Shown: piece after piece, positions 26,033 through 32,244 of the stretch
Position numbering within the stretch: the stretch's first letter is position 1
Layout of the letters: every line of letters begins with the position of its first letter
Source: Escherichia coli
GTDB lineage: Bacteria; Pseudomonadota; Gammaproteobacteria; Enterobacterales; Enterobacteriaceae
Direction: 5' to 3' (one strand)
NCBI RefSeq assembly: GCF_048403405.1
Contig: NZ_CP183129.1
DNA: 64,000 nucleotides
Notes under the pieces: generated by a model
What the model was told of the DNA's origin: nothing
Database searches by the model: none
Seen by the model: only the letters and a program-made list of their open reading frames with translations
Translations under genes and position numbers: made by a program

Positions 26033-26065
26033 AAAAGAAAACCCGATAGTCTGAACCATCGGGTT
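26031..26065 (-). terminator. Terminator-like hairpin for ybhJ
   Basis: AACCCGAT...ATCGGGTT stem followed by a T-run on the minus strand. Confidence 0.5.
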
Positions 26066-26073
26066 AATGAAAC

Positions 26074-26103
26074 AGGGCGCTATATTTCATAGCGCCTTTT
26101 TTT
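26074..26103 (+). terminator. Rho-independent terminator after ybhC
   Basis: GGGCGCTAT-ATTTC-ATAGCGCC stem followed by TTTTTTT. Confidence 0.6.
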
Positions 26104-26107
26104 ACAT

Positions 26108-28387
26108 CTAACGGTTTTTATTGAAGTTAATCAAACTACCCGCCTTGATAATCTCGCGCTCTTCGGCCGTCAGGCTTTCCATGTAAAGCGTAATTTCCGT
26201 TACCGGCGCATCTTCATGGATCACATAACCCTTAAACGTCGTACCCGGATTATCCAGCGCCGCTTTAATGCCTGGGATGTAAATGTAATCACCTACGTCA
26301 AAGTTCGGTGCTTCCGCCATTTGCAGCGGTAACATCCCCCAGTTGATGACGTTAGAACGGTAGCGTTTAGTCGCGTACTCCTCGGCAATATTCGCCAGAC
26401 CGCCAATCACACGCTGACAACTCGCCGCCTGCTCACGCGCAGAACCATCGCCTGGTTTCACCGCATAGACCATGCTGCCAATTTCAGTTTGCAGCGGATC
26501 AATATGCTCCTGACCAGCAATCTGCTTAATGCGCGCAAACACCTCTGTCAGCTCGCTGACATTCCCCGCCAGACGCTGATTTTCCAGTTCAGCAGTCGCT
26601 TTACTTCTGCCAACATAACCTGGATCGCGACGTGACAGGGTAAACTCCGCCAGACCAATCGGATTTGAACGATAAGAAGAGGTTTCACCGGAAGGAATCA
26701 ATTCGTCGGTGGTGGTCACTTCGTCGAGGATCTTCGAGCACACTTTGAGGACGATATTGTCAGTCAGCGCACCCAATTCCGGCCAGTCTTTAATGTTCGG
26801 TCCGTAAATCAGCGGTTGCTGAGTTGCCCCTTTCACAAAGCCCTGATAAACACGGTTTTTATACGGCGTTACATCGAAGGCGTACTCCGGCACGTTGTCC
26901 CAGCAATCAAGTTCGCTGGCAGAGGTTAAATAGCCACCGTTTGCCGCAGTCGCAGCGATAGAACGAGCGTCCATCAACGCCACCGCTGACATCTGCCCAT
27001 TGGCTGGCTTAGAGCCTTCGCGGTTCGGGAAGTTACGCGTGGTGTGGCGAATACTCAAACCGTTGTTGATTGGCGTATCGCCCGCGCCAAAGCATGGGCC
27101 GCAGAACGCGGTTCTGATGATTGCGCCTGCGCCAATCAAATCTGCTACCACACCTTTTTTGGCGAGATCCATAAACACCGGCTGTGATGACGGGTAAACC
27201 GCTAACGAGAAGGTGTCATTGCCACAGGATTGACCGCGCAGTGCATTCGCCGCCGCGATGACGTTTTCGTAGTTACCGCCAGAACAGCCCGCGATAATCC
27301 CCTGCTGCACTTTCAGGCGACCATTTTCCACTTTATCCAGCAGCGAGAGTTTGGCTTTACCGTGCGCCACGCGTTCGGACTCAATTTCAATCTCACGCAG
27401 AATGTCGGTCAGGTTCTGGTTCAGCGTGTCGATTTCATACACGTTGCTCGGGTGAAACGGCAGCGCAATCATTGGTTTGATGGCGCTTAAATCAACGCTG
27501 ATGCAGCCATCGTAGTACGCCATCGGTTGAGGGTTAAGCTGGCAGTAATCCTGGCCGCGACCGTGCAGCGCCAGCCAGTTATGGACTTCTTCATCGGTTT
27601 GCCAGACAGAACTTAAACAGGTCGTTTCAGTGGTCATAACGTCAACGCTGTTACGGAAATCGGTAGAGAGCGCAGCAACACCGGGACCTACGAATTCCAT
27701 CACTTTGTTTTTGACGTAGCCGTTTTTGAACACGGCACCGATGATAGCCAGCGCCACATCCTGTGGCCCCACATACGGCGCTGGTTTTCCGGTCAGATGC
27801 ACCGCAACAACTCCCGGATAGTCGATATCCCAGGTGTCATTAAGCAATTGTTTTACCAACTCGCCGCCGCCCTCACCGACAGCCATTGTCCCTAATGCAC
27901 CGTAACGGGTGTGGCTGTCTGACCCGAGGATCATTTTGCCGCCGCCTGCCATCATCTCACGCATATATTGATGGATGACCGCAATATGCGGAGGCACAAA
28001 AATACCGCCATAACGCTGCGCTGCCGATAAACCAAAAACATGGTCATCACCGTTAATGGTGCCGCCGACGGCGCAAAGTGAGTTATGGCAGTTGGTCAGC
28101 ACATACGGCAGCGGGAAACGTTCCATACCGGACGCTTTAGCAGTCTGTACAATCCCAACAAAGGTAATATCGTGAGAGGCTAATGAATCAAACTTAATTT
28201 TAAGTTTATCCATATTTCCGGACGTATTATGAGAAGAGAGAATAGACCAGGCAATAGTGCCTTTTTTGGCTTCTTCTTTTTTAATTTCGCCGGTGAAATG
28301 TTCTTCGGCAATTATTTCGTTATTACTGGCGAGAAACACGCCTTTTTCAGATAACTTGATCATCAAATGCTCCAGATATCTGCGCAC
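26108..28387 (-). CDS. ybhJ: Aconitase-family putative hydratase YbhJ
   Basis: 759-aa ORF with aconitase-like domains; exact start uncertain (alternative Met at 28363). Confidence 0.85.
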
Positions 28388-28432
28388 CGAGAAGTGCGCA
28401 GAAAGATAATAAATGGATATACTCTAAATAAT

Positions 28433-28545
28433 TAGAGTTGCAGGAAGGCGACTAGCGAGTGAATCCCCAGGCGCTTACATAAGTAAGTGACTGGGGTGAG
28501 CGAACGCAGACGCAGCACATGCAACTTGAAGTATGACGAGTATAT
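28433..28545. repeat. ERIC (IRU) enterobacterial repetitive intergenic consensus element
   Basis: Contains the ERIC core GTGAATCCCCAGG.GCTTACATAAGTAAGTGACTGGGGTGAGCG between ybhJ and ybhI. Confidence 0.8.
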
Positions 28546-29979
28546 TTACAGCATGTTCCAGCCGATCAGCATATTCCACCACCACACGCCGAGGGTGATA
28601 TGTACCAGGAAGGTTAATATCGTCAGTACCGCACCGACCAACCACCAGGATTTAATATCGTTGTAACCCACGCCAAAGATGACCGGACCTGCCGCGCCGC
28701 CATAGTGAGTAACCATGCCGCCATAGGAGTTGGAGAACAACAGTGCCAGCGCGGTTAACATTAACGGTGCGCCGGAGACGTTCGCCAGCATGGCAAATAC
28801 CGGTAACATAGCAACGATATAGGCACTACCGGAAGCGAAGAAATAACGAACGATGATGCTGAGGAAAATAATAACGAAGAAAGCAACGTTACCGTGACCA
28901 TCAAATGCCAGGTTATTTTTAAAGACTTCAGCTAACCATTCGAAGAATTTAACTTTCGATAATAAGGAGCTTAAGCCGATAATACCGCCGTACCAGATTA
29001 AGGTATTCCAGCCGCCTTTATTTTTAACCACGTCTTCCCAGGTAACGATACCCAGCAGCAGCATGGTCGCCATAACAACGATTGCCACGGTGGATTCATC
29101 AACCCCCAGGGACTTACTGAAAATCCAGCCCAGCAGCGCCAGCACAAAGACACCGAGCAGCATTTTTTCGCGGATTTTCATCGGTCCCAGTTCGGCAAGG
29201 CCCGCTTTGGCGATGGTTTTGTTATCCACCTTCTTAATTTCTGGCGGATACATGGTGTAAATCACCAGCGGGGTGACCAGCAGCATAATGATACCCGGCA
29301 ATCCGGCGGCCAGCGCCCATCCACCCCAGCTAATTTGCAGGTGCAGAATGTCGTTGATCATTTTCAGCGCCAGAATGTTCCCCGCCATTGCGGTAAAGAA
29401 CATATAGCTGGTGGTTTTGGTGACCATGTAAATGGACATCATCAGGTAATGTCCGACACGACGCGGACTTTTTTCCGGTTCGGACCCCAAAGCCACCGCC
29501 ACGCTGTTGATGATCGGTAACACAATGCCGCCCGCACGCGCGGTGTTAGACGGTGTTGCCGGAGCCAGTACCAGATCGAGAAATACCGTAACGTAACCCA
29601 GACCCAGGGTAGTGCTACCAATTTTACCAATCAGCAAATAGGCAATACGTTTACCTAAGCCGGTGGTCACAAATGCGGCGCTTAAGGTAAACGCCGAGAA
29701 CACCAGCCAGGTGGTACCTGAAGAGTAACCGCTTAATACGGCGGTGGTTTTAAACGCACCGTCGGATAAGTTACCGACCACCACCATGGAGGCAGCAACG
29801 GCAATTAACAGTACGACAGGTTCCGGGAAAGGCTTGATAACCAGCCCCACAATGGCCGCCAGGTAAATACCAAAAAGCACCCACGCCAGTTCGCTTAATC
29901 CTGCCGGAGCTGGCATAAAGCCAATAATACATGGGATCGCTAATATCAGAATTAGCTTCCATAACGATTTTTTATTCAT
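28546..29979 (-). CDS. ybhI: DASS-family anion transporter YbhI
   Basis: 477-aa polytopic membrane ORF. Confidence 0.9.
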   Translation of the reverse strand: MNKKSLWKLILILAIPCIIGFMPAPAGLSELAWVLFGIYLAAIVGLVIKPFPEPVVLLIAVAASMVVVGNLSDGAFKTTAVLSGYSSGTTWLVFSAFTLSAAFVTTGLGKRIAYLLIGKIGSTTLGLGYVTVFLDLVLAPATPSNTARAGGIVLPIINSVAVALGSEPEKSPRRVGHYLMMSIYMVTKTTSYMFFTAMAGNILALKMINDILHLQISWGGWALAAGLPGIIMLLVTPLVIYTMYPPEIKKVDNKTIAKAGLAELGPMKIREKMLLGVFVLALLGWIFSKSLGVDESTVAIVVMATMLLLGIVTWEDVVKNKGGWNTLIWYGGIIGLSSLLSKVKFFEWLAEVFKNNLAFDGHGNVAFFVIIFLSIIVRYFFASGSAYIVAMLPVFAMLANVSGAPLMLTALALLFSNSYGGMVTHYGGAAGPVIFGVGYNDIKSWWLVGAVLTILTFLVHITLGVWWWNMLIGWNML

Positions 29980-30054
29980 TTAAAATCCTGTTCTTTCTGT
30001 ATGACTCATACAGAAGTCCTTTATTGATTGTCCTTATCCTGACAACGAATTTTT

Positions 30055-31107
30055 TCAGGGAAGAAAAACTTCACCGGAAAATATTTTTCTGGTTGTCCGA
30101 ATAACAGATGCGCGTAACGTCGTGGCATCCTGACCTTCATTACTTAAATGAACGTCGAGCGCACCACTGGGGTGTTCAATATTGATATTGCCGTATCCTA
30201 CAGAAGGGACGATTTGTCGGGTGACGGTGCCTTCCAATGCACAACTACTGGAAATGGCAATAGCACCGGTTATCGCCAGCGCGCGATGGCAAGAATGCGG
30301 CATAAAATAACGCACATTAATTGCTCCGCCTTTCTGCGCTGGAGAAATAAGCACAGGTTTAGGGATAACCATATTACTGACATCGCCTAAGCCCATTGCT
30401 TTACCCGCTTGTAGACGGATAGATTCAATGCGAGCTAATAATGCTTTGTCGGCATCCAGTTCCATCGGTAATTCATAGCCTGTTTTTCCCAGATATTCAG
30501 CAGGAATAATGACAACTGGCATCGCCATATCGATACAGGTCACCGGGACATCGTCAAAATAATCAATCTGATTATCAGTCGGGAAGACTTTTCCGGTTTT
30601 GGTTCCGGCGGCATTCAGGAAAGTGAGCGCAACCGGTGCGGCAGTACCCGGTACGCCGTCAATTCTGGCGCTACCCTCGTACTCGACAACACCATTTGGC
30701 GTTTGCACATCAGCTTCGATGAACGTACCCGTATTGACGTTGCGGATACGTACGCGGGTAACTGGCGAAGTCGCTGCAATCAAACCATTTTCAATAGCGA
30801 ATGCCCCAACGCCAGACAGCATATTGCCGCAGTTAGGCGTGGTATCGACACGTTGCTCATGGACGATAACTTGAGCAAACAGATAATCGACATCAGCACG
30901 CGGATCGCTGGAACGGCTAATAATGGCGACTTTACTGGTCAGCGGATTACCGCCGCCAATACCGTCAATTTCCAGATCGTTACCGGAACCCATAATTGCC
31001 ATCAATATTTTATCGCGCTGCGTTTGATCTTCGGGTAGATGTTCCGCTAACAGGAACGCGCCCCTCGAGGTTCCACCTCGCATCATCACGCAGGGTATTT
31101 TTTTCAT
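30055..31107 (-). CDS. ybhH: PrpF-family isomerase-like protein YbhH
   Basis: 350-aa ORF. Confidence 0.88.
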   Translation of the reverse strand: MKKIPCVMMRGGTSRGAFLLAEHLPEDQTQRDKILMAIMGSGNDLEIDGIGGGNPLTSKVAIISRSSDPRADVDYLFAQVIVHEQRVDTTPNCGNMLSGVGAFAIENGLIAATSPVTRVRIRNVNTGTFIEADVQTPNGVVEYEGSARIDGVPGTAAPVALTFLNAAGTKTGKVFPTDNQIDYFDDVPVTCIDMAMPVVIIPAEYLGKTGYELPMELDADKALLARIESIRLQAGKAMGLGDVSNMVIPKPVLISPAQKGGAINVRYFMPHSCHRALAITGAIAISSSCALEGTVTRQIVPSVGYGNINIEHPSGALDVHLSNEGQDATTLRASVIRTTRKIFSGEVFLP

Positions 31108-31290
31108 AATAATGCCCTCAATTTAAAAACATAACTTATTGCGATATGGTTACATTAAGGGCAAAGCATCTCTAATGACTTTAGCTCAACGATTAATAAC
31201 ATTTTTTCATTAATTTAAGTTAGCTAAATGCAGTTAAAATTTTTAACGGCCAGTCACCCAAAATCGACGCTTCCATTTTCCGGAGTAATA

Positions 31291-32244
31291 ATGAAGCATG
31301 AATTATCAAGTATGAAGGCATTTGTCATACTGGCAGAGTCCAGTTCATTTAACAATGCCGCTAAATTACTCAATATTACGCAACCTGCATTAACGCGAAG
31401 AATAAAAAAGATGGAGGAAGATTTACATATCCAACTATTTGAGCGTACAACTCGCAAGGTTACGTTAACAAAAGCAGGAAAAAGATTGCTCCCGGAGGCG
31501 CGGGAATTAATAAAGAAATTCGATGAAACGCTTTTTAATATTCGTGATATGAATGCTTATCATCGTGGTATGGTGACATTAGCGTGTATTCCGACCGCAG
31601 TATTTTATTTTTTACCGCTGGCAATCGGTAAATTTAATGAGCTTTATCCCAATATTAAAGTGCGGATTCTGGAACAAGGTACGAATAATTGCATGGAATC
31701 GGTGCTGTGTAACGAATCAGACTTTGGCATAAACATGAACAACGTCACAAATTCATCCATTGATTTTACCCCACTGGTCAACGAGCCGTTCGTGCTGGCC
31801 TGTCGGCGTGACCATCCATTGGCCAAAAAGCAGCTTGTAGAATGGCAGGAGTTAGTGGGTTACAAAATGATTGGCGTACGCTCCTCCAGCGGCAACCGAC
31901 TGTTGATAGAACAACAGCTGGCCGACAAGCCCTGGAAGCTGGACTGGTTTTACGAAGTGCGTCATCTTTCGACGTCATTAGGACTGGTGGAGGCGGGACT
32001 GGGGATTTCGGCGCTTCCTGGTCTGGCAATGCCCCATGCACCCTATTCTTCGATTATTGGTATCCCGCTGGTGGAACCGGTTATACGTCGGACATTGGGG
32101 ATTATTCGCCGCAAAGATGCCGTGCTTTCTCCGGCAGCTGAACGCTTTTTTGCCTTGCTGATTAATTTGTGGACTGACGATAAAGACAATTTGTGGACCA
32201 ATATCGTCGAACGCCAGAGACATGCGTTACAGGAGATAGGTTAA
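31291..32244 (+). CDS. ybhD: LysR-family transcriptional regulator YbhD
   Basis: ORF 31228-32244; start at MKHELSSMKAF (31291) giving 317 aa; N-terminal HTH; divergent from ybhH. Confidence 0.88.
   Translation: MKHELSSMKAFVILAESSSFNNAAKLLNITQPALTRRIKKMEEDLHIQLFERTTRKVTLTKAGKRLLPEARELIKKFDETLFNIRDMNAYHRGMVTLACIPTAVFYFLPLAIGKFNELYPNIKVRILEQGTNNCMESVLCNESDFGINMNNVTNSSIDFTPLVNEPFVLACRRDHPLAKKQLVEWQELVGYKMIGVRSSSGNRLLIEQQLADKPWKLDWFYEVRHLSTSLGLVEAGLGISALPGLAMPHAPYSSIIGIPLVEPVIRRTLGIIRRKDAVLSPAAERFFALLINLWTDDKDNLWTNIVERQRHALQEIG

Follow-up and report, generated by a model that had tools for sequence, protein, structure and literature searches.

The ybhD-ybhHIJ cluster of Escherichia coli as a proposed trans-aconitate assimilation module

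Described systems related to ybhHIJ

The closest analogue of the ybhD-ybhHIJ cluster of Escherichia coli is TarR-TarA-TarB of Bacillus velezensis, which acts on trans-aconitic acid (PMC11495376). In each, a LysR gene diverges from an operon that opens with a PrpF-family isomerase gene and continues directly with an importer gene, and their logic would be alike: import, followed by a single isomerization into the TCA cycle. However, the importer is an MFS protein in TarRAB and a DASS protein (YbhI) in E. coli, and the E. coli operon adds an aconitase-family hydratase and an ERIC insertion. Homologues in Shigella, presumably YbhH, are ~40% identical to TarA (Table S6), and YbhH belongs to a different subclade. 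Also, TarR is an activator while YbhD is a reported repressor, which counts against a role in trans-aconitate use. In favor of such a role, there are isolates of Enterobacter, Citrobacter, Providencia, Pantoea, and Serratia that assimilate trans-aconitate (PMC13188880; PMC11495376).

Four other systems are related to parts of the cluster. First, the Pseudomonas loci for the proteins AI-7-1, AI-16-1, AI-32-1, and AI-41-1 (our loci L132 and L133) have a divergent LysR gene, an orthologue of ybhD (54% protein identity), followed by an isomerase that is 63% identical to YbhH and shares six signature residues with it, and then transporters. Unlike the E. coli locus, these loci lack YbhJ, and their transporters are of the SDF and CitMHS families, accompanied by a porin of the OprD family; the isomerases have 358-360 amino acids, with a C-terminal extension (ending in QRLAG) that is absent from YbhH.

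Second, the (4E)-oxalomesaconate delta-isomerases LigU and GalD, from protocatechuate 4,5-cleavage and gallate degradation, share the PrpF fold, the Lys/Cys pair, and 45-50% identity with YbhH. They catalyze a 1,3-allylic proton shift on a tricarboxylate, which is chemically the same type of reaction as the one we propose. However, they form a sister clade with other residues at the six positions, and their neighbors ligK, ligJ, and ligAB are absent from ybhHIJ.

Third, in the 2-methylcitrate cycle of Shewanella, the AcnD-PrpF pair joins an Fe-S dehydratase of the aconitase family to an isomerase of the PrpF family, and both act on aconitate-type tricarboxylates (PMC5690661). In contrast, YbhJ and YbhH score below the cutoffs of the AcnD and PrpF models, ybhHIJ does not have prpBC as neighbors, and its isomerase probably acts first, opposite to the order in that cycle.

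Fourth, YbhJ resembles mitochondrial and bacterial aconitases (AcnA, AcnB, and the PRK07229 type) in its domain order, three cysteine ligands, catalytic serine, and four substrate arginines, and its orthologues seem to share operons with genes for citrate synthase and an isocitrate-dehydrogenase-like protein. Nevertheless, YbhJ belongs to a separate family (NF008503), with about 13 residues inserted ahead of the GDGSARE loop and five active-site substitutions.

The locus and its conservation

We analyzed a window of 64,000 nucleotides from an E. coli chromosome. Positions 26108-32244 (6137 bp) match several E. coli chromosomes at 100% identity; the genes there are annotated as ybhJ, ybhI, ybhH, and ybhD. 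Among 5426 complete genomes, 5315 contain at least 80% of these positions. The cluster is core E. coli DNA and was already known, as the initial annotation had stated.

The maximal open reading frames are at 26108-28387, 28546-29979, and 30055-31107 on the minus strand and at 31228-32244 on the plus strand, as given previously, and the RefSeq starts lie slightly inside them. The start of ybhJ is the ATG at 28363, not the GTG at 28387: GGAG lies 6 nt upstream, and the resulting MIKL is the N-terminus of all YbhJ homologues. The start of ybhD is the ATG at 31291, not 31228. On the minus strand, ybhH (30055-31107) encodes a PrpF-family isomerase of 350 amino acids (full-length Pfam PrpF, 556 bits); ybhI (28546-29979) encodes a DASS-family anion transporter of 477 amino acids (Pfam Na_sulph_symp, 648 bits); and ybhJ (26108-28363) encodes an aconitase-family [4Fe-4S] hydro-lyase of 751 amino acids (Pfam Aconitase, 296 bits, and Aconitase_C). 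Divergent from them, on the plus strand, ybhD (31291-32244) encodes a LysR-type regulator of 317 amino acids (Pfam HTH_1 and LysR_substrate).

Strong purifying selection acts on all four genes: dN/dS is 0.02-0.04 relative to E. albertii and 0.03-0.11 relative to Citrobacter and Edwardsiella. The set stays together in Escherichia, Citrobacter, Edwardsiella, Klebsiella, and Enterobacter, where the genes around it differ.

The initial annotation described these genes as a coherent but functionally unassigned module of tricarboxylate type, and each part of this description held up. The arrangement matches the reading frames and Pfam families; coherence is supported by the shared travel of the genes and by the de-repression of ybhH in a ybhD deletion (PMC9068703); and full-text searches on the four gene names and PDB entry 6OTV found no substrate assignment. 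We can sharpen it in three ways: the closest analogue is a trans-aconitate assimilation system instead of the PrpF/AcnD pair, the YbhD regulator is already partly characterized, and the database name of YbhH is probably wrong (see below).

A proposed route from trans-aconitate to central metabolism

Our best reading, to which we give a probability of roughly 55%, is that ybhD-ybhHIJ is a YbhD-repressed module for the import of trans-aconitate by YbhI, its isomerization to cis-aconitate by YbhH, and hydration by YbhJ. It would be a variant of TarRAB with its own aconitase. Its substrate, which would also induce it, would be an unsaturated tricarboxylate of the aconitate type, and the plant acid trans-aconitate is the most probable candidate. 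YbhD, acting on the divergent control region, would hold ybhHI (and perhaps ybhJ) off, as published for ybhH, and the substrate would release this repression. YbhI would then import the acid, probably in exchange for a dicarboxylate, as suggested by its family. YbhH, a cofactor-free enzyme of the PrpF type, would use its Lys59/Cys93 pair for the allylic proton shift from trans- to cis-aconitate; we infer this step because YbhH is in the same clade as assayed aconitate isomerases. Finally, the [4Fe-4S] enzyme YbhJ would add water to cis-aconitate to give isocitrate or citrate, which enter central metabolism, as suggested by its conserved active-site residues and the context of its orthologues. 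More speculatively, the cell may require a dedicated aconitase since ordinary ones are inhibited by trans-aconitate.

YbhH and the aconitate isomerases

YbhH conserves the catalytic residues K59 and C93, and the structure of the K-12 protein has been solved (6OTV). Its score against the NCBI equivalog model NF033377 ("OMA_tautomer," 4-oxalomesaconate tautomerase) is 514 bits, which passes the cutoff of 440, while its score against the PrpF model is just 186 (cutoff 440). The closest solved homologues, after YbhH itself, are LigU structures (6P3H/J/K, E = 1e-93), and Mii (3g7k) is also a structural relative (E = 5e-67). In a neighbor-joining tree, however, YbhH lies in a clade that is separate from the true LigU/GalD proteins. 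Six residues separate the clades (G42, L45, A195, P251, M269, and A278 in the YbhH clade versus P, R, G, M, I, and G in the LigU clade). All 7 LigU-clade loci adjoin ligK, ligJ, and/or ligB, which were never found beside the YbhH-clade loci that we examined. The tree, the neighbors, and the six residues place YbhH outside the LigU/GalD clade, and the database name of 4-oxalomesaconate tautomerase is probably wrong for it.

Instead, we propose from sequence comparisons that YbhH is an aconitate isomerase. All six YbhH-clade residues are found in the Pseudomonas proteins P0346, P0354, and P0362, which are 63% identical to E. coli YbhH. These proteins begin with MQRIPCV (P0346 and P0354) or MRIPCV (P0362) and end with QRLAG, and these termini agree with the cloning primers of the four AI proteins; the 32-1-F primer has one mismatch to the gene start in L132. 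The four AI proteins have 88-101% of the forward aconitate-isomerase activity of TarA (ISME J 2024, Table S4).

Besides the NF033377 score, two observations argue against this assignment. The assayed aconitate isomerases are in a subclade of 358-363 amino acids, whereas YbhH is in a sister subclade of 350-351 amino acids. Also, AI-79 from Providencia rettgeri was inactive, with 0.67% and 0.35% of the activity of TarA (ISME J 2024, Table S4). AI-79, a possible member of the YbhH clade, ends with GDVYVP, like the YbhH type. Its cloning began at an internal MRGGTSK start, so that the first beta-strand is missing.

YbhJ as a putative aconitase

YbhJ matches NCBIfam NF008503 ("hydratase") with 1538 bits. 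It keeps the Fe-S cysteines of aconitase (C360, C421, and C424), the catalytic serine (S641), and D149-S150-H151, H131, H93, E246, R443, R448, D553, R565 (the equivalent of Arg580), and R643, so that all four substrate arginines are present; these residues are invariant in the family alignment. Orthologues with 65-73% identity occur in gut Firmicutes, Negativicutes, and Coriobacteriia. Outside Collinsella, 18 of 40 loci have citrate synthase, an isocitrate-dehydrogenase-like gene, or citrate lyase within 4 kb of the orthologue, and some orthologues adjoin citDEF. We therefore propose, tentatively, that YbhJ is a dedicated aconitase.

Against this, five active-site positions of YbhJ depart from aconitase (Q72H, D100C, N258V, N446T, and S643A), and YbhJ fails every curated aconitase model; it scores 64 bits against the AcnD model, whose cutoff is 1420. 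E. coli already has AcnA and AcnB, which leaves the need for YbhJ unexplained. Blank et al. 2002 reportedly found that inactivation of ybhJ left the residual aconitase activity of acnAB mutants unchanged.

Regulation and transport

Deletion of ybhD de-represses ybhH, so YbhD is a repressor of ybhH; ybhI is a predicted target, and control of ybhJ was not reported (PMC9068703). The sole reported phenotype of the deletion concerns L-malate and not aconitate, which argues against the trans-aconitate reading (PMC9068703). A candidate operator at 31172-31214 combines ATTAAT-N11-ATTAAT (31192-31214) with a conserved GTCATTAG box (31172-31179). Its columns are invariant in E. coli, E. albertii, Citrobacter, Edwardsiella, and a Providencia plasmid, and YbhD may bind there.

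YbhI scores 553 bits against the DASS model TIGR00785 (cutoff 199) and is 35.7% identical to the 2-oxoglutarate/malate translocator of spinach (PMC9068703 supplement). We propose that it imports or exchanges a tricarboxylate. YbhH-clade loci always include a YbhD-like regulator, next to a transporter that varies by taxon: DASS in enteric bacteria; an NMT1-type ABC transporter in Rhizobium and Agrobacterium; SDF, CitMHS, and an OprD porin in Pseudomonas; and MFS in Pantoea, followed by citrate lyase (citCDEFXG). The LysR proteins adjoining YbhH-clade isomerases in Klebsiella, Pantoea, Pseudomonas, Providencia, and Rhizobium are 47-65% identical to YbhD, versus just 22-33% for the LigR-type regulator. 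A more distant YbhH homologue lies within a TctA tricarboxylate-transporter operon, beside tcuAB. These links of the YbhH clade to tricarboxylate transporters, along with the four arginines of YbhJ and the neighbors of its orthologues, support the tricarboxylate type in the initial annotation.

Alternative explanations

We considered whether the same chemistry (import, allylic isomerization, and Fe-S hydration or dehydration) might act on another unsaturated or hydroxylated acid, which we consider rather unlikely. Candidates are itaconate or citraconate (with Mii- and DmdAB-like enzymes), methyl- or homo-aconitate, and hydroxycitrate; in the last case, YbhJ might dehydrate the acid and YbhH might move the double bond, yielding oxalosuccinate and then 2-oxoglutarate. 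Nicotinate fermentation does pair the PrpF-family Mii, a structural relative of YbhH, with the aconitase-family DmdAB. Other points in favor are the five active-site differences of YbhJ, a metagenomic locus (L009) with a LysR gene, an Iso_dh-family dehydrogenase, a PrpF protein, and a YbhJ-like hydratase, the phenotype of the ybhD deletion on a dicarboxylate, L-malate (PMC9068703), and a bacterial activity from hydroxycitrate to 2-oxoglutarate that is recorded but unassigned (PMC4945632). However, YbhJ keeps the four arginines, including the one that binds the third carboxylate in aconitase, and the Pseudomonas proteins that match assayed aconitate isomerases share their six signature residues with YbhH. 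The Rhizobium and Pseudomonas loci contain only the isomerase and transporters, so the product of the isomerase must already be a central metabolite, and in Pantoea the isomerase is coupled to citrate lyase.

Less likely still, there is no dedicated pathway: YbhJ would be a third, horizontally acquired aconitase of the housekeeping type, and YbhH and YbhI would be a separate or largely cryptic pair, mostly silent. YbhJ orthologues in anaerobes do lack PrpF or DASS neighbors, the ERIC insertion parts ybhJ from ybhHI in Escherichia, the reported control by YbhD does not extend to ybhJ, and KEGG-based studies already place ybhJ at the aconitase step. But the order isomerase-DASS-hydratase is kept, with short spacers, in Citrobacter, Edwardsiella, Klebsiella, and Enterobacter despite different neighborhoods, dN/dS is 0.02-0.1 in all four genes, and there is no terminator-like site between ybhI and ybhJ.

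It is very improbable that the database name is right and that YbhH isomerizes 4-oxalomesaconate from gallate or protocatechuate ring cleavage, with YbhJ replacing the LigJ/GalB hydratase: the NF033377 score and the LigU structures favor this, but no ligK/galC aldolase, ligJ/galB hydratase, or ring-cleavage dioxygenase is near ybhH, YbhH differs from the LigU clade at 6 of 6 discriminating residues, including a lost conserved Arg, and YbhD resembles the regulators of the aconitate-isomerase clade and not the LigR type.

The ERIC element and other hairpins

The ERIC element that had been noticed between ybhJ and ybhI is genuine. It lies at 28417-28545, directly after the stop codon of ybhI, and matches the ERIC2 primer sequence exactly (28481-28502) and ERIC1R with one mismatch (28459-28480), where 0 such matches are expected by chance. 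It folds into a long hairpin (-45 kcal/mol, z = -6.0), and by Megablast the ybhI-ybhJ intergenic region has matches at about 5 places in the median E. coli genome. The element is present between ybhI and ybhJ in E. coli and E. albertii and absent in Citrobacter, Edwardsiella, and Klebsiella; this Escherichia-only hairpin probably uncouples or modulates the expression of ybhJ relative to ybhHI.

Just 3' of the ybhJ stop codon, a hairpin resembling an intrinsic terminator (26040-26065, minus strand) has an 11-bp stem followed by TTCTTTTTTA, and it is paired with a plus-strand hairpin for ybhC at 26074-26098. We also read a perfect 8-bp stem with a 6-nt loop from the sequence at 28380-28401 (minus strand; CTGCGCAC-TTCTCG-GTGCGCAG), directly 5' of the Shine-Dalgarno sequence of ybhJ (GGAG, 28370-28373).

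A proposed function for ybhDHIJ

We propose that the ybhDHIJ cluster of E. coli (window 26108-32244) is a module for the use of trans-aconitate, repressed by YbhD, and we give this reading a probability of roughly 0.55. YbhD would repress the operon until it is released by the substrate (repression of ybhH itself is published; PMC9068703). YbhI would import the acid, YbhH would isomerize trans-aconitate to cis-aconitate, and YbhJ would hydrate the cis-aconitate. That the module imports, isomerizes, and hydrates some aconitate-type tricarboxylate, whichever it is, seems quite likely. Because trans-aconitate inhibits ordinary aconitases, the added aconitase may help.

The TarR-TarA-TarB system for trans-aconitate in Bacillus velezensis (PMC11495376) resembles ybhDHIJ: both have a divergent LysR gene, with a PrpF-type isomerase and an adjoining importer in one operon. 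The importers differ, as TarB belongs to the MFS, whereas YbhI belongs to the DASS family (TIGR00785, 553 bits). So ybhDHIJ has the same logic as TarRAB with another importer and an added aconitase.

The initial annotation had also drawn an analogy to the AcnD/PrpF pair of 2-methylcitrate metabolism. As a claim of membership, this fails: YbhJ scores just 64 bits against the cutoff of 1420 for TIGR02333, and YbhH scores 186 against 440 for TIGR02334. Furthermore, the AcnD/PrpF pair has prpBC as neighbors, whereas ybhDHIJ is flanked by bioA-ybhB-ybhC and by pgl-ybhA-modCBA, with no prp genes. We rejected this assignment.

A full-text search on the four gene names gave no substrate for ybhD-ybhHIJ, in agreement with the initial annotation, and the study of YbhD (PMC9068703) does not name one either. 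Isolates of Enterobacter, Citrobacter, Providencia, Pantoea, and Serratia that assimilate trans-aconitate are known, with the genes unassigned (PMC13188880, PMC11495376). If our proposal is correct, ybhDHIJ and its relatives are the obvious candidate genes for these isolates, and four conserved y-genes of E. coli, one of them with an orphan structure (6OTV), would be given a specific function. Grasses, cereals, and sugar cane are rich in trans-aconitate. Given this abundance in plants and the inhibition of aconitase, a gut bacterium that can import and neutralize trans-aconitate would obtain both carbon and protection. The advance would be a functional assignment and not a new kind of system, since the locus is long-known core DNA, and the trans-aconitate reading would not surprise a specialist. 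What is new here is a specific, well-supported, unpublished functional hypothesis, together with two corrections to annotations.

The locus

The description of window 26108-32244 in the initial annotation held up in full, including the four long ORFs, their families, and the ERIC element. Pfam and NCBIfam agree on the families of all four genes: ybhJ encodes an aconitase-family hydratase (PF00330, 296.5 bits, residues 41-470; PF00694, 28.4 bits versus a cutoff of 22.8), ybhI a DASS-family transporter, ybhH a PrpF-family isomerase (PF04303 over its full length, 556 bits, residues 1-350), and ybhD a LysR-type regulator. In RefSeq, the products are named "hydratase," "anion permease," "4-oxalomesaconate tautomerase," and "LysR family transcriptional regulator," respectively. 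The RefSeq starts of ybhJ (28363) and ybhD (31291) fit the Shine-Dalgarno sequences and the N termini of homologs better than the starts of the longest ORFs do.

The modest framing of this DNA as core and not novel was also accurate: the genes are long known, at least 80% of window 26108-32244 is present in 5,315 of 5,426 complete genomes, and several E. coli chromosomes are 100% identical across it. Purifying selection on each of the four genes is strong (dN/dS of 0.02 to 0.04 versus E. albertii). The GC content across the cluster (0.42 to 0.54) is unremarkable and thus gives no hint that the cluster was transferred into E. coli recently.

YbhJ resembles an aconitase of a distinct family

Alignment to pig mitochondrial aconitase suggests that YbhJ is a genuine aconitase. 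Its cysteines C360, C421, and C424 align to the cluster ligands Cys358, Cys421, and Cys424. Also kept are H93 (His101), H131 (His147), D149-S150-H151 (Asp165-Ser166-His167), E246 (Glu262), R443 (Arg447), R448 (Arg452), the catalytic serine S641 (Ser642), and R643 (Arg644). HMMER left the region around Arg580 unaligned; D553 and R565 were matched to Asp568 and Arg580 by the TTD...R motif, with a spacing of 12 residues in both proteins. The kept residues are invariant in eight members of the family, at identities down to 40%. The family appears to be distinct: YbhJ scores below the curated cutoff of every aconitase model (343 versus 612 for PRK07229 and 122 versus 825 for TIGR01340) and far below the cutoffs of the AcnA, AcnB, and AcnD models; only NF008503 ("hydratase") passed. 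We did not find in the literature an assay of YbhJ for the interconversion of citrate, cis-aconitate, and isocitrate. Incidental reports state that ybhJ is upregulated 18-fold in E. coli feeding on Chlamydomonas and that it is expressed in colonic fluid.

YbhJ also differs from pig aconitase at five positions of the active site (Q72H, D100C, N258V, N446T, and S643A). These substitutions would fit the same chemistry on another substrate, such as itaconate or citraconate, methylaconitates, or hydroxycitrate, as would the growth phenotype of a ybhD deletion on glycerol plus L-malate (PMC9068703) and the isocitrate dehydrogenase-family (Iso_dh) gene in a metagenomic locus (L009). We consider another substrate unlikely, but it is the alternative to trans-aconitate that survives best. 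A long shot is that YbhJ does what ordinary aconitases cannot, either by working amid or on trans-aconitate or by dehydrating a hydroxylated tricarboxylate from plants, for example hydroxycitrate, and that the cluster is a route for dietary plant acids without known bacterial genes. With hydroxycitrate, dehydration by YbhJ would be followed by a double-bond shift by YbhH, yielding oxalosuccinate and then 2-oxoglutarate. The YbhJ family, at 65 to 73% identity from Enterobacterales to gut Firmicutes and Coriobacteriia, would then form a fourth class of aconitase-like enzymes with a function of its own.

Relatives of YbhJ in gut anaerobes

A scan of species-representative genomes gave more than 598 relatives of YbhJ. 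Just 3 of the best 80 of these (L012 to L091) are from Enterobacterales, and because Klebsiella, a known carrier, is missing from the best 80, they are no measure of the distribution across species or of absence (from Salmonella, for example). The remainder of the best 80 are from gut anaerobes and are 65 to 73% identical to E. coli YbhJ; they include Enterocloster, Hungatella, Blautia, Butyrivibrio, Megasphaera, Acidaminococcus, Erysipelotrichaceae, Epulopiscium, Ellagibacter, and about 40 Collinsella. The orthologs from Collinsella and Enterocloster are 74% identical to each other. Identities of 65 to 73% across Enterobacterales, Firmicutes, Negativicutes, and Coriobacteriia are far above the expectation for vertical descent, which suggests that YbhJ has spread horizontally among gut bacteria.

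Among the best 80, 18 of the 40 loci outside Collinsella have citrate synthase, an isocitrate dehydrogenase-like gene, or citrate lyase within 4 kb. Citrate synthase is within this distance of the ybhJ ortholog in 12 of these 40 (NF010635, 587 bits versus a cutoff of 426), an isocitrate dehydrogenase-like gene in 12 (441 bits versus 510), and citrate lyase (citDEF) in 4. The neighborhoods are often apparent operons; in L019, for instance, the ybhJ ortholog (10001-12301) is followed by citrate synthase (12328-13671) and the isocitrate dehydrogenase-like gene (13675-14676). These neighbors are strong contextual evidence that the YbhJ family acts on citrate, cis-aconitate, and isocitrate. Many abundant gut anaerobes (Lachnospiraceae, Megasphaera, and Collinsella) probably use the "hydratase" of NF008503 as their working aconitase, which would bear on reconstructions of microbiome metabolism.

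Among the best 80, no anaerobe locus has a PrpF-family or DASS neighbor. It could be that E. coli has no dedicated pathway, with YbhJ as a spare aconitase and YbhH and YbhI as a separate or cryptic pair; we think that this is improbable, and somewhat more so than a different substrate.

Two more distant YbhJ-like proteins from metagenomic genomes (P0148 and P0154, 37 to 39% identity; L010 8001-10966 and L011 1175-4287) have kept neither the three Fe-S cysteines nor the DSHT motif. In both genomes, a Macro-domain protein and then an FGGY kinase follow directly. These proteins have the appearance of pseudo-enzymes or of an aconitase fold turned to another use, and since they lack the cluster ligands, we left them out of the family alignment. 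Also, on one metagenomic contig (L009 199-10202), genes for two YbhJ-family hydratases and a PRK07229-type aconitase occur together with those for a LysR regulator, an unassigned Iso_dh-family dehydrogenase, and a PrpF-family isomerase, the last of which scores equally on the PrpF and oxalomesaconate models. This looks like an uncharacterized tricarboxylate pathway.

YbhH and the aconitate isomerases

K59 and C93 of YbhH align to the catalytic pair of the oxalomesaconate isomerase LigU (K66 and C100; K73 and C107 in PrpF). The chains in 6P3H and 6P3K differ from wild-type LigU exactly at this pair (K to M and C to S). Apart from the YbhH structure itself (6OTV), for which our literature search found no paper, the closest solved structures are those of LigU; Mii and PrpF come next.

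We compared YbhH to LigU using alignment columns that discriminate between the clades, in place of the residues that contact the substrate in LigU. Six columns are fixed differently: the YbhH clade has G42, L45, A195, P251, M269, and A278, where the LigU clade has P, R, G, M, I, and G. YbhH itself has none of the LigU-clade residues at these positions. A neighbor-joining tree (without bootstrap) separates the two groups cleanly, and in this tree YbhH nests with three Pseudomonas proteins (P0346, P0354, and P0362) that are 63% identical to it and share the six signature residues. P0346 and P0354 begin with MQRIPCV, P0362 begins with MRIPCV, and all three end with QRLAG. These match the ends encoded by the cloning primers of AI-7-1, AI-16-1, AI-32-1, and AI-41-1, and primer 32-1-F has one mismatch to the gene start in one Pseudomonas locus (L132). 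These four proteins had 88 to 101% of TarA's forward aconitate isomerase activity, versus 2 to 4% for PrpF-type paralogs from the same strains (ISME J 2024, Table S4 for the four proteins). By the tree, the identity, the six residues, and the primer matches, YbhH falls within a clade that contains assayed aconitate isomerases and not in the LigU clade. The assayed enzymes belong to a subclade of 358 to 363 amino acids, and YbhH, which keeps Lys59, Cys93, and the same regulator partner, is in a sister subclade of 350 to 351 amino acids. Our literature search did not find an assay of YbhH itself.

Another protein from that study, AI-79 from Providencia rettgeri, was inactive as an aconitate isomerase (ISME J 2024). 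Its C terminus (GDVYVP) is YbhH-like, and it is only possibly related to YbhH. It was cloned from an internal start (MRGGTSK), so it lacks the first beta-strand. The AI-79 primers did not match the genes on Providencia plasmids. In a metagenome scan, the 5' sequence of AI-79 gave 27 PrpF-family loci, none of which has the AI-79 3' end. A protein search gave P0276 from P. rettgeri, with a different C terminus.

Gene context also separates the clades. We examined seven loci whose isomerase is 44 to 50% identical to YbhH (from Sphingobium, Nitratireductor, Azospirillum, Agrobacterium tumefaciens, Photobacterium, Cupriavidus, and Ralstonia syzygii), and each of them has ligK (CHA aldolase), ligJ (hydratase), and/or ligAB (dioxygenase) adjoining. 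These are genuine LigU/GalD loci. None of ligK/galC, ligJ/galB, or a ring-cleavage dioxygenase is within 6 kb of ybhH, and ligK, ligJ, and ligAB were absent from every locus we examined with a homolog 55 to 68% identical to YbhH. Instead, each of the latter has a divergent LysR gene that is 47 to 65% identical to YbhD, versus 22 to 33% for YbhD and LigR-type regulators. The adjoining transporters vary: DASS in enterics, with or without a second DASS/CitMHS transporter, along with YbhJ; an NMT1-type ABC system in Rhizobium and A. larrymoorei; SDF and CitMHS transporters and an OprD-family porin in Pseudomonas; an MFS transporter followed by citrate lyase (citCDEFXG) in Pantoea; and none on Providencia plasmids. 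A more distant homolog (47% identity) lies in a TctA tricarboxylate transporter operon with tcuAB adjoining.

YbhH does exceed the cutoff of the oxalomesaconate tautomerase model (NF033377, 514.2 bits versus 440), but this reading of YbhH and the cluster is contradicted by the gene context and the six signature residues, so we reject the RefSeq name and view an oxalomesaconate pathway as highly improbable. More broadly, NCBI's "4-oxalomesaconate tautomerase" label appears to cover a whole clade, whose members are more likely to be aconitate isomerases.

On Pseudosulfitobacter plasmids (L097 2779-13050), a TctC-TctBA operon has a PrpF-family "oxalomesaconate tautomerase" as its third gene. The operon is under the control of a two-component system and adjoins the tricarballylate genes tcuAB. 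This "tautomerase" is a probable further case of a misannotated aconitate-type isomerase. Two Providencia plasmids (124 kb, L092 6918-9089, and 30 kb, L104 4919-7089) each have a YbhH-clade isomerase along with a LysR gene like ybhD but no transporter, which shows that the regulator-isomerase pair is mobile.

Regulation by YbhD

A ChIP-exo site has been reported for YbhD, and deletion of ybhD strongly upregulated ybhH, so YbhD acts as a repressor, as observed in M9 medium supplemented with threonine (PMC9068703). The same study mentions possible control by Nac. Our literature search gave no report of induction of the cluster by trans-aconitate or of growth on this acid through it. We identified a candidate YbhD operator, ATTAAT-N11-ATTAAT (31192-31214) with a GTCATTAG box (31172-31179), which is conserved from E. 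coli through to a Providencia plasmid. A promoter scan found no more sigma-70-like sites than in shuffled sequence (7 versus 9.0 ± 3.0), so we do not claim a promoter.

Variation at the locus

Just 10 of 5,445 E. coli records are at least 99% identical to the 6.1-kb window region 26108-32244, and nearly all of the others are 95 to 99% identical. Therefore, the allele or lineage in the window is comparatively uncommon at ybhDHIJ.

In Klebsiella aerogenes (L002 4865-12286) and Enterobacter cloacae (L135 7001-13287), the cluster has an extra DASS/CitMHS transporter of 420 amino acids between ybhI and ybhJ. The cluster lies at a different chromosomal site than in E. coli: ispH flanks it on one side, along with rihC in Klebsiella, and a two-component sensor-regulator pair flanks it on the other. 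In Klebsiella, the pair is CitAB-type, and citrate fermentation genes (oadGAB-citS) lie beyond it.

The 158-bp spacer between ybhI and ybhJ contains the ERIC element that the initial annotation had noted; it is 129 bp long (28417-28545). ERIC elements are imperfect palindromes of about 127 bp with an ERIC1R and ERIC2 core that are dispersed in enterobacterial genomes. This one matches the ERIC2 primer sequence exactly and ERIC1R with one mismatch, and its fold is a long hairpin (-45 kcal/mol, z = -6.0). By megablast, the spacer matches a median of about 5 places per E. coli genome. Both E. coli and E. albertii have the element, and the corresponding spacers of Citrobacter, Edwardsiella, and Klebsiella are short and lack it (sites: window 28417-28545 and 9862-9883 in the homologous locus L012). 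It is therefore an Escherichia-specific insertion in an otherwise compact operon.

Between the ERIC element and the Shine-Dalgarno sequence of ybhJ, we noticed a perfect 8-bp stem with a 6-nt loop, CTGCGCAC TTCTCG GTGCGCAG (28380-28401, minus strand). It includes the alternative GTG start of the longest ybhJ ORF, and it might influence the translation of ybhJ or the processing of the transcript.
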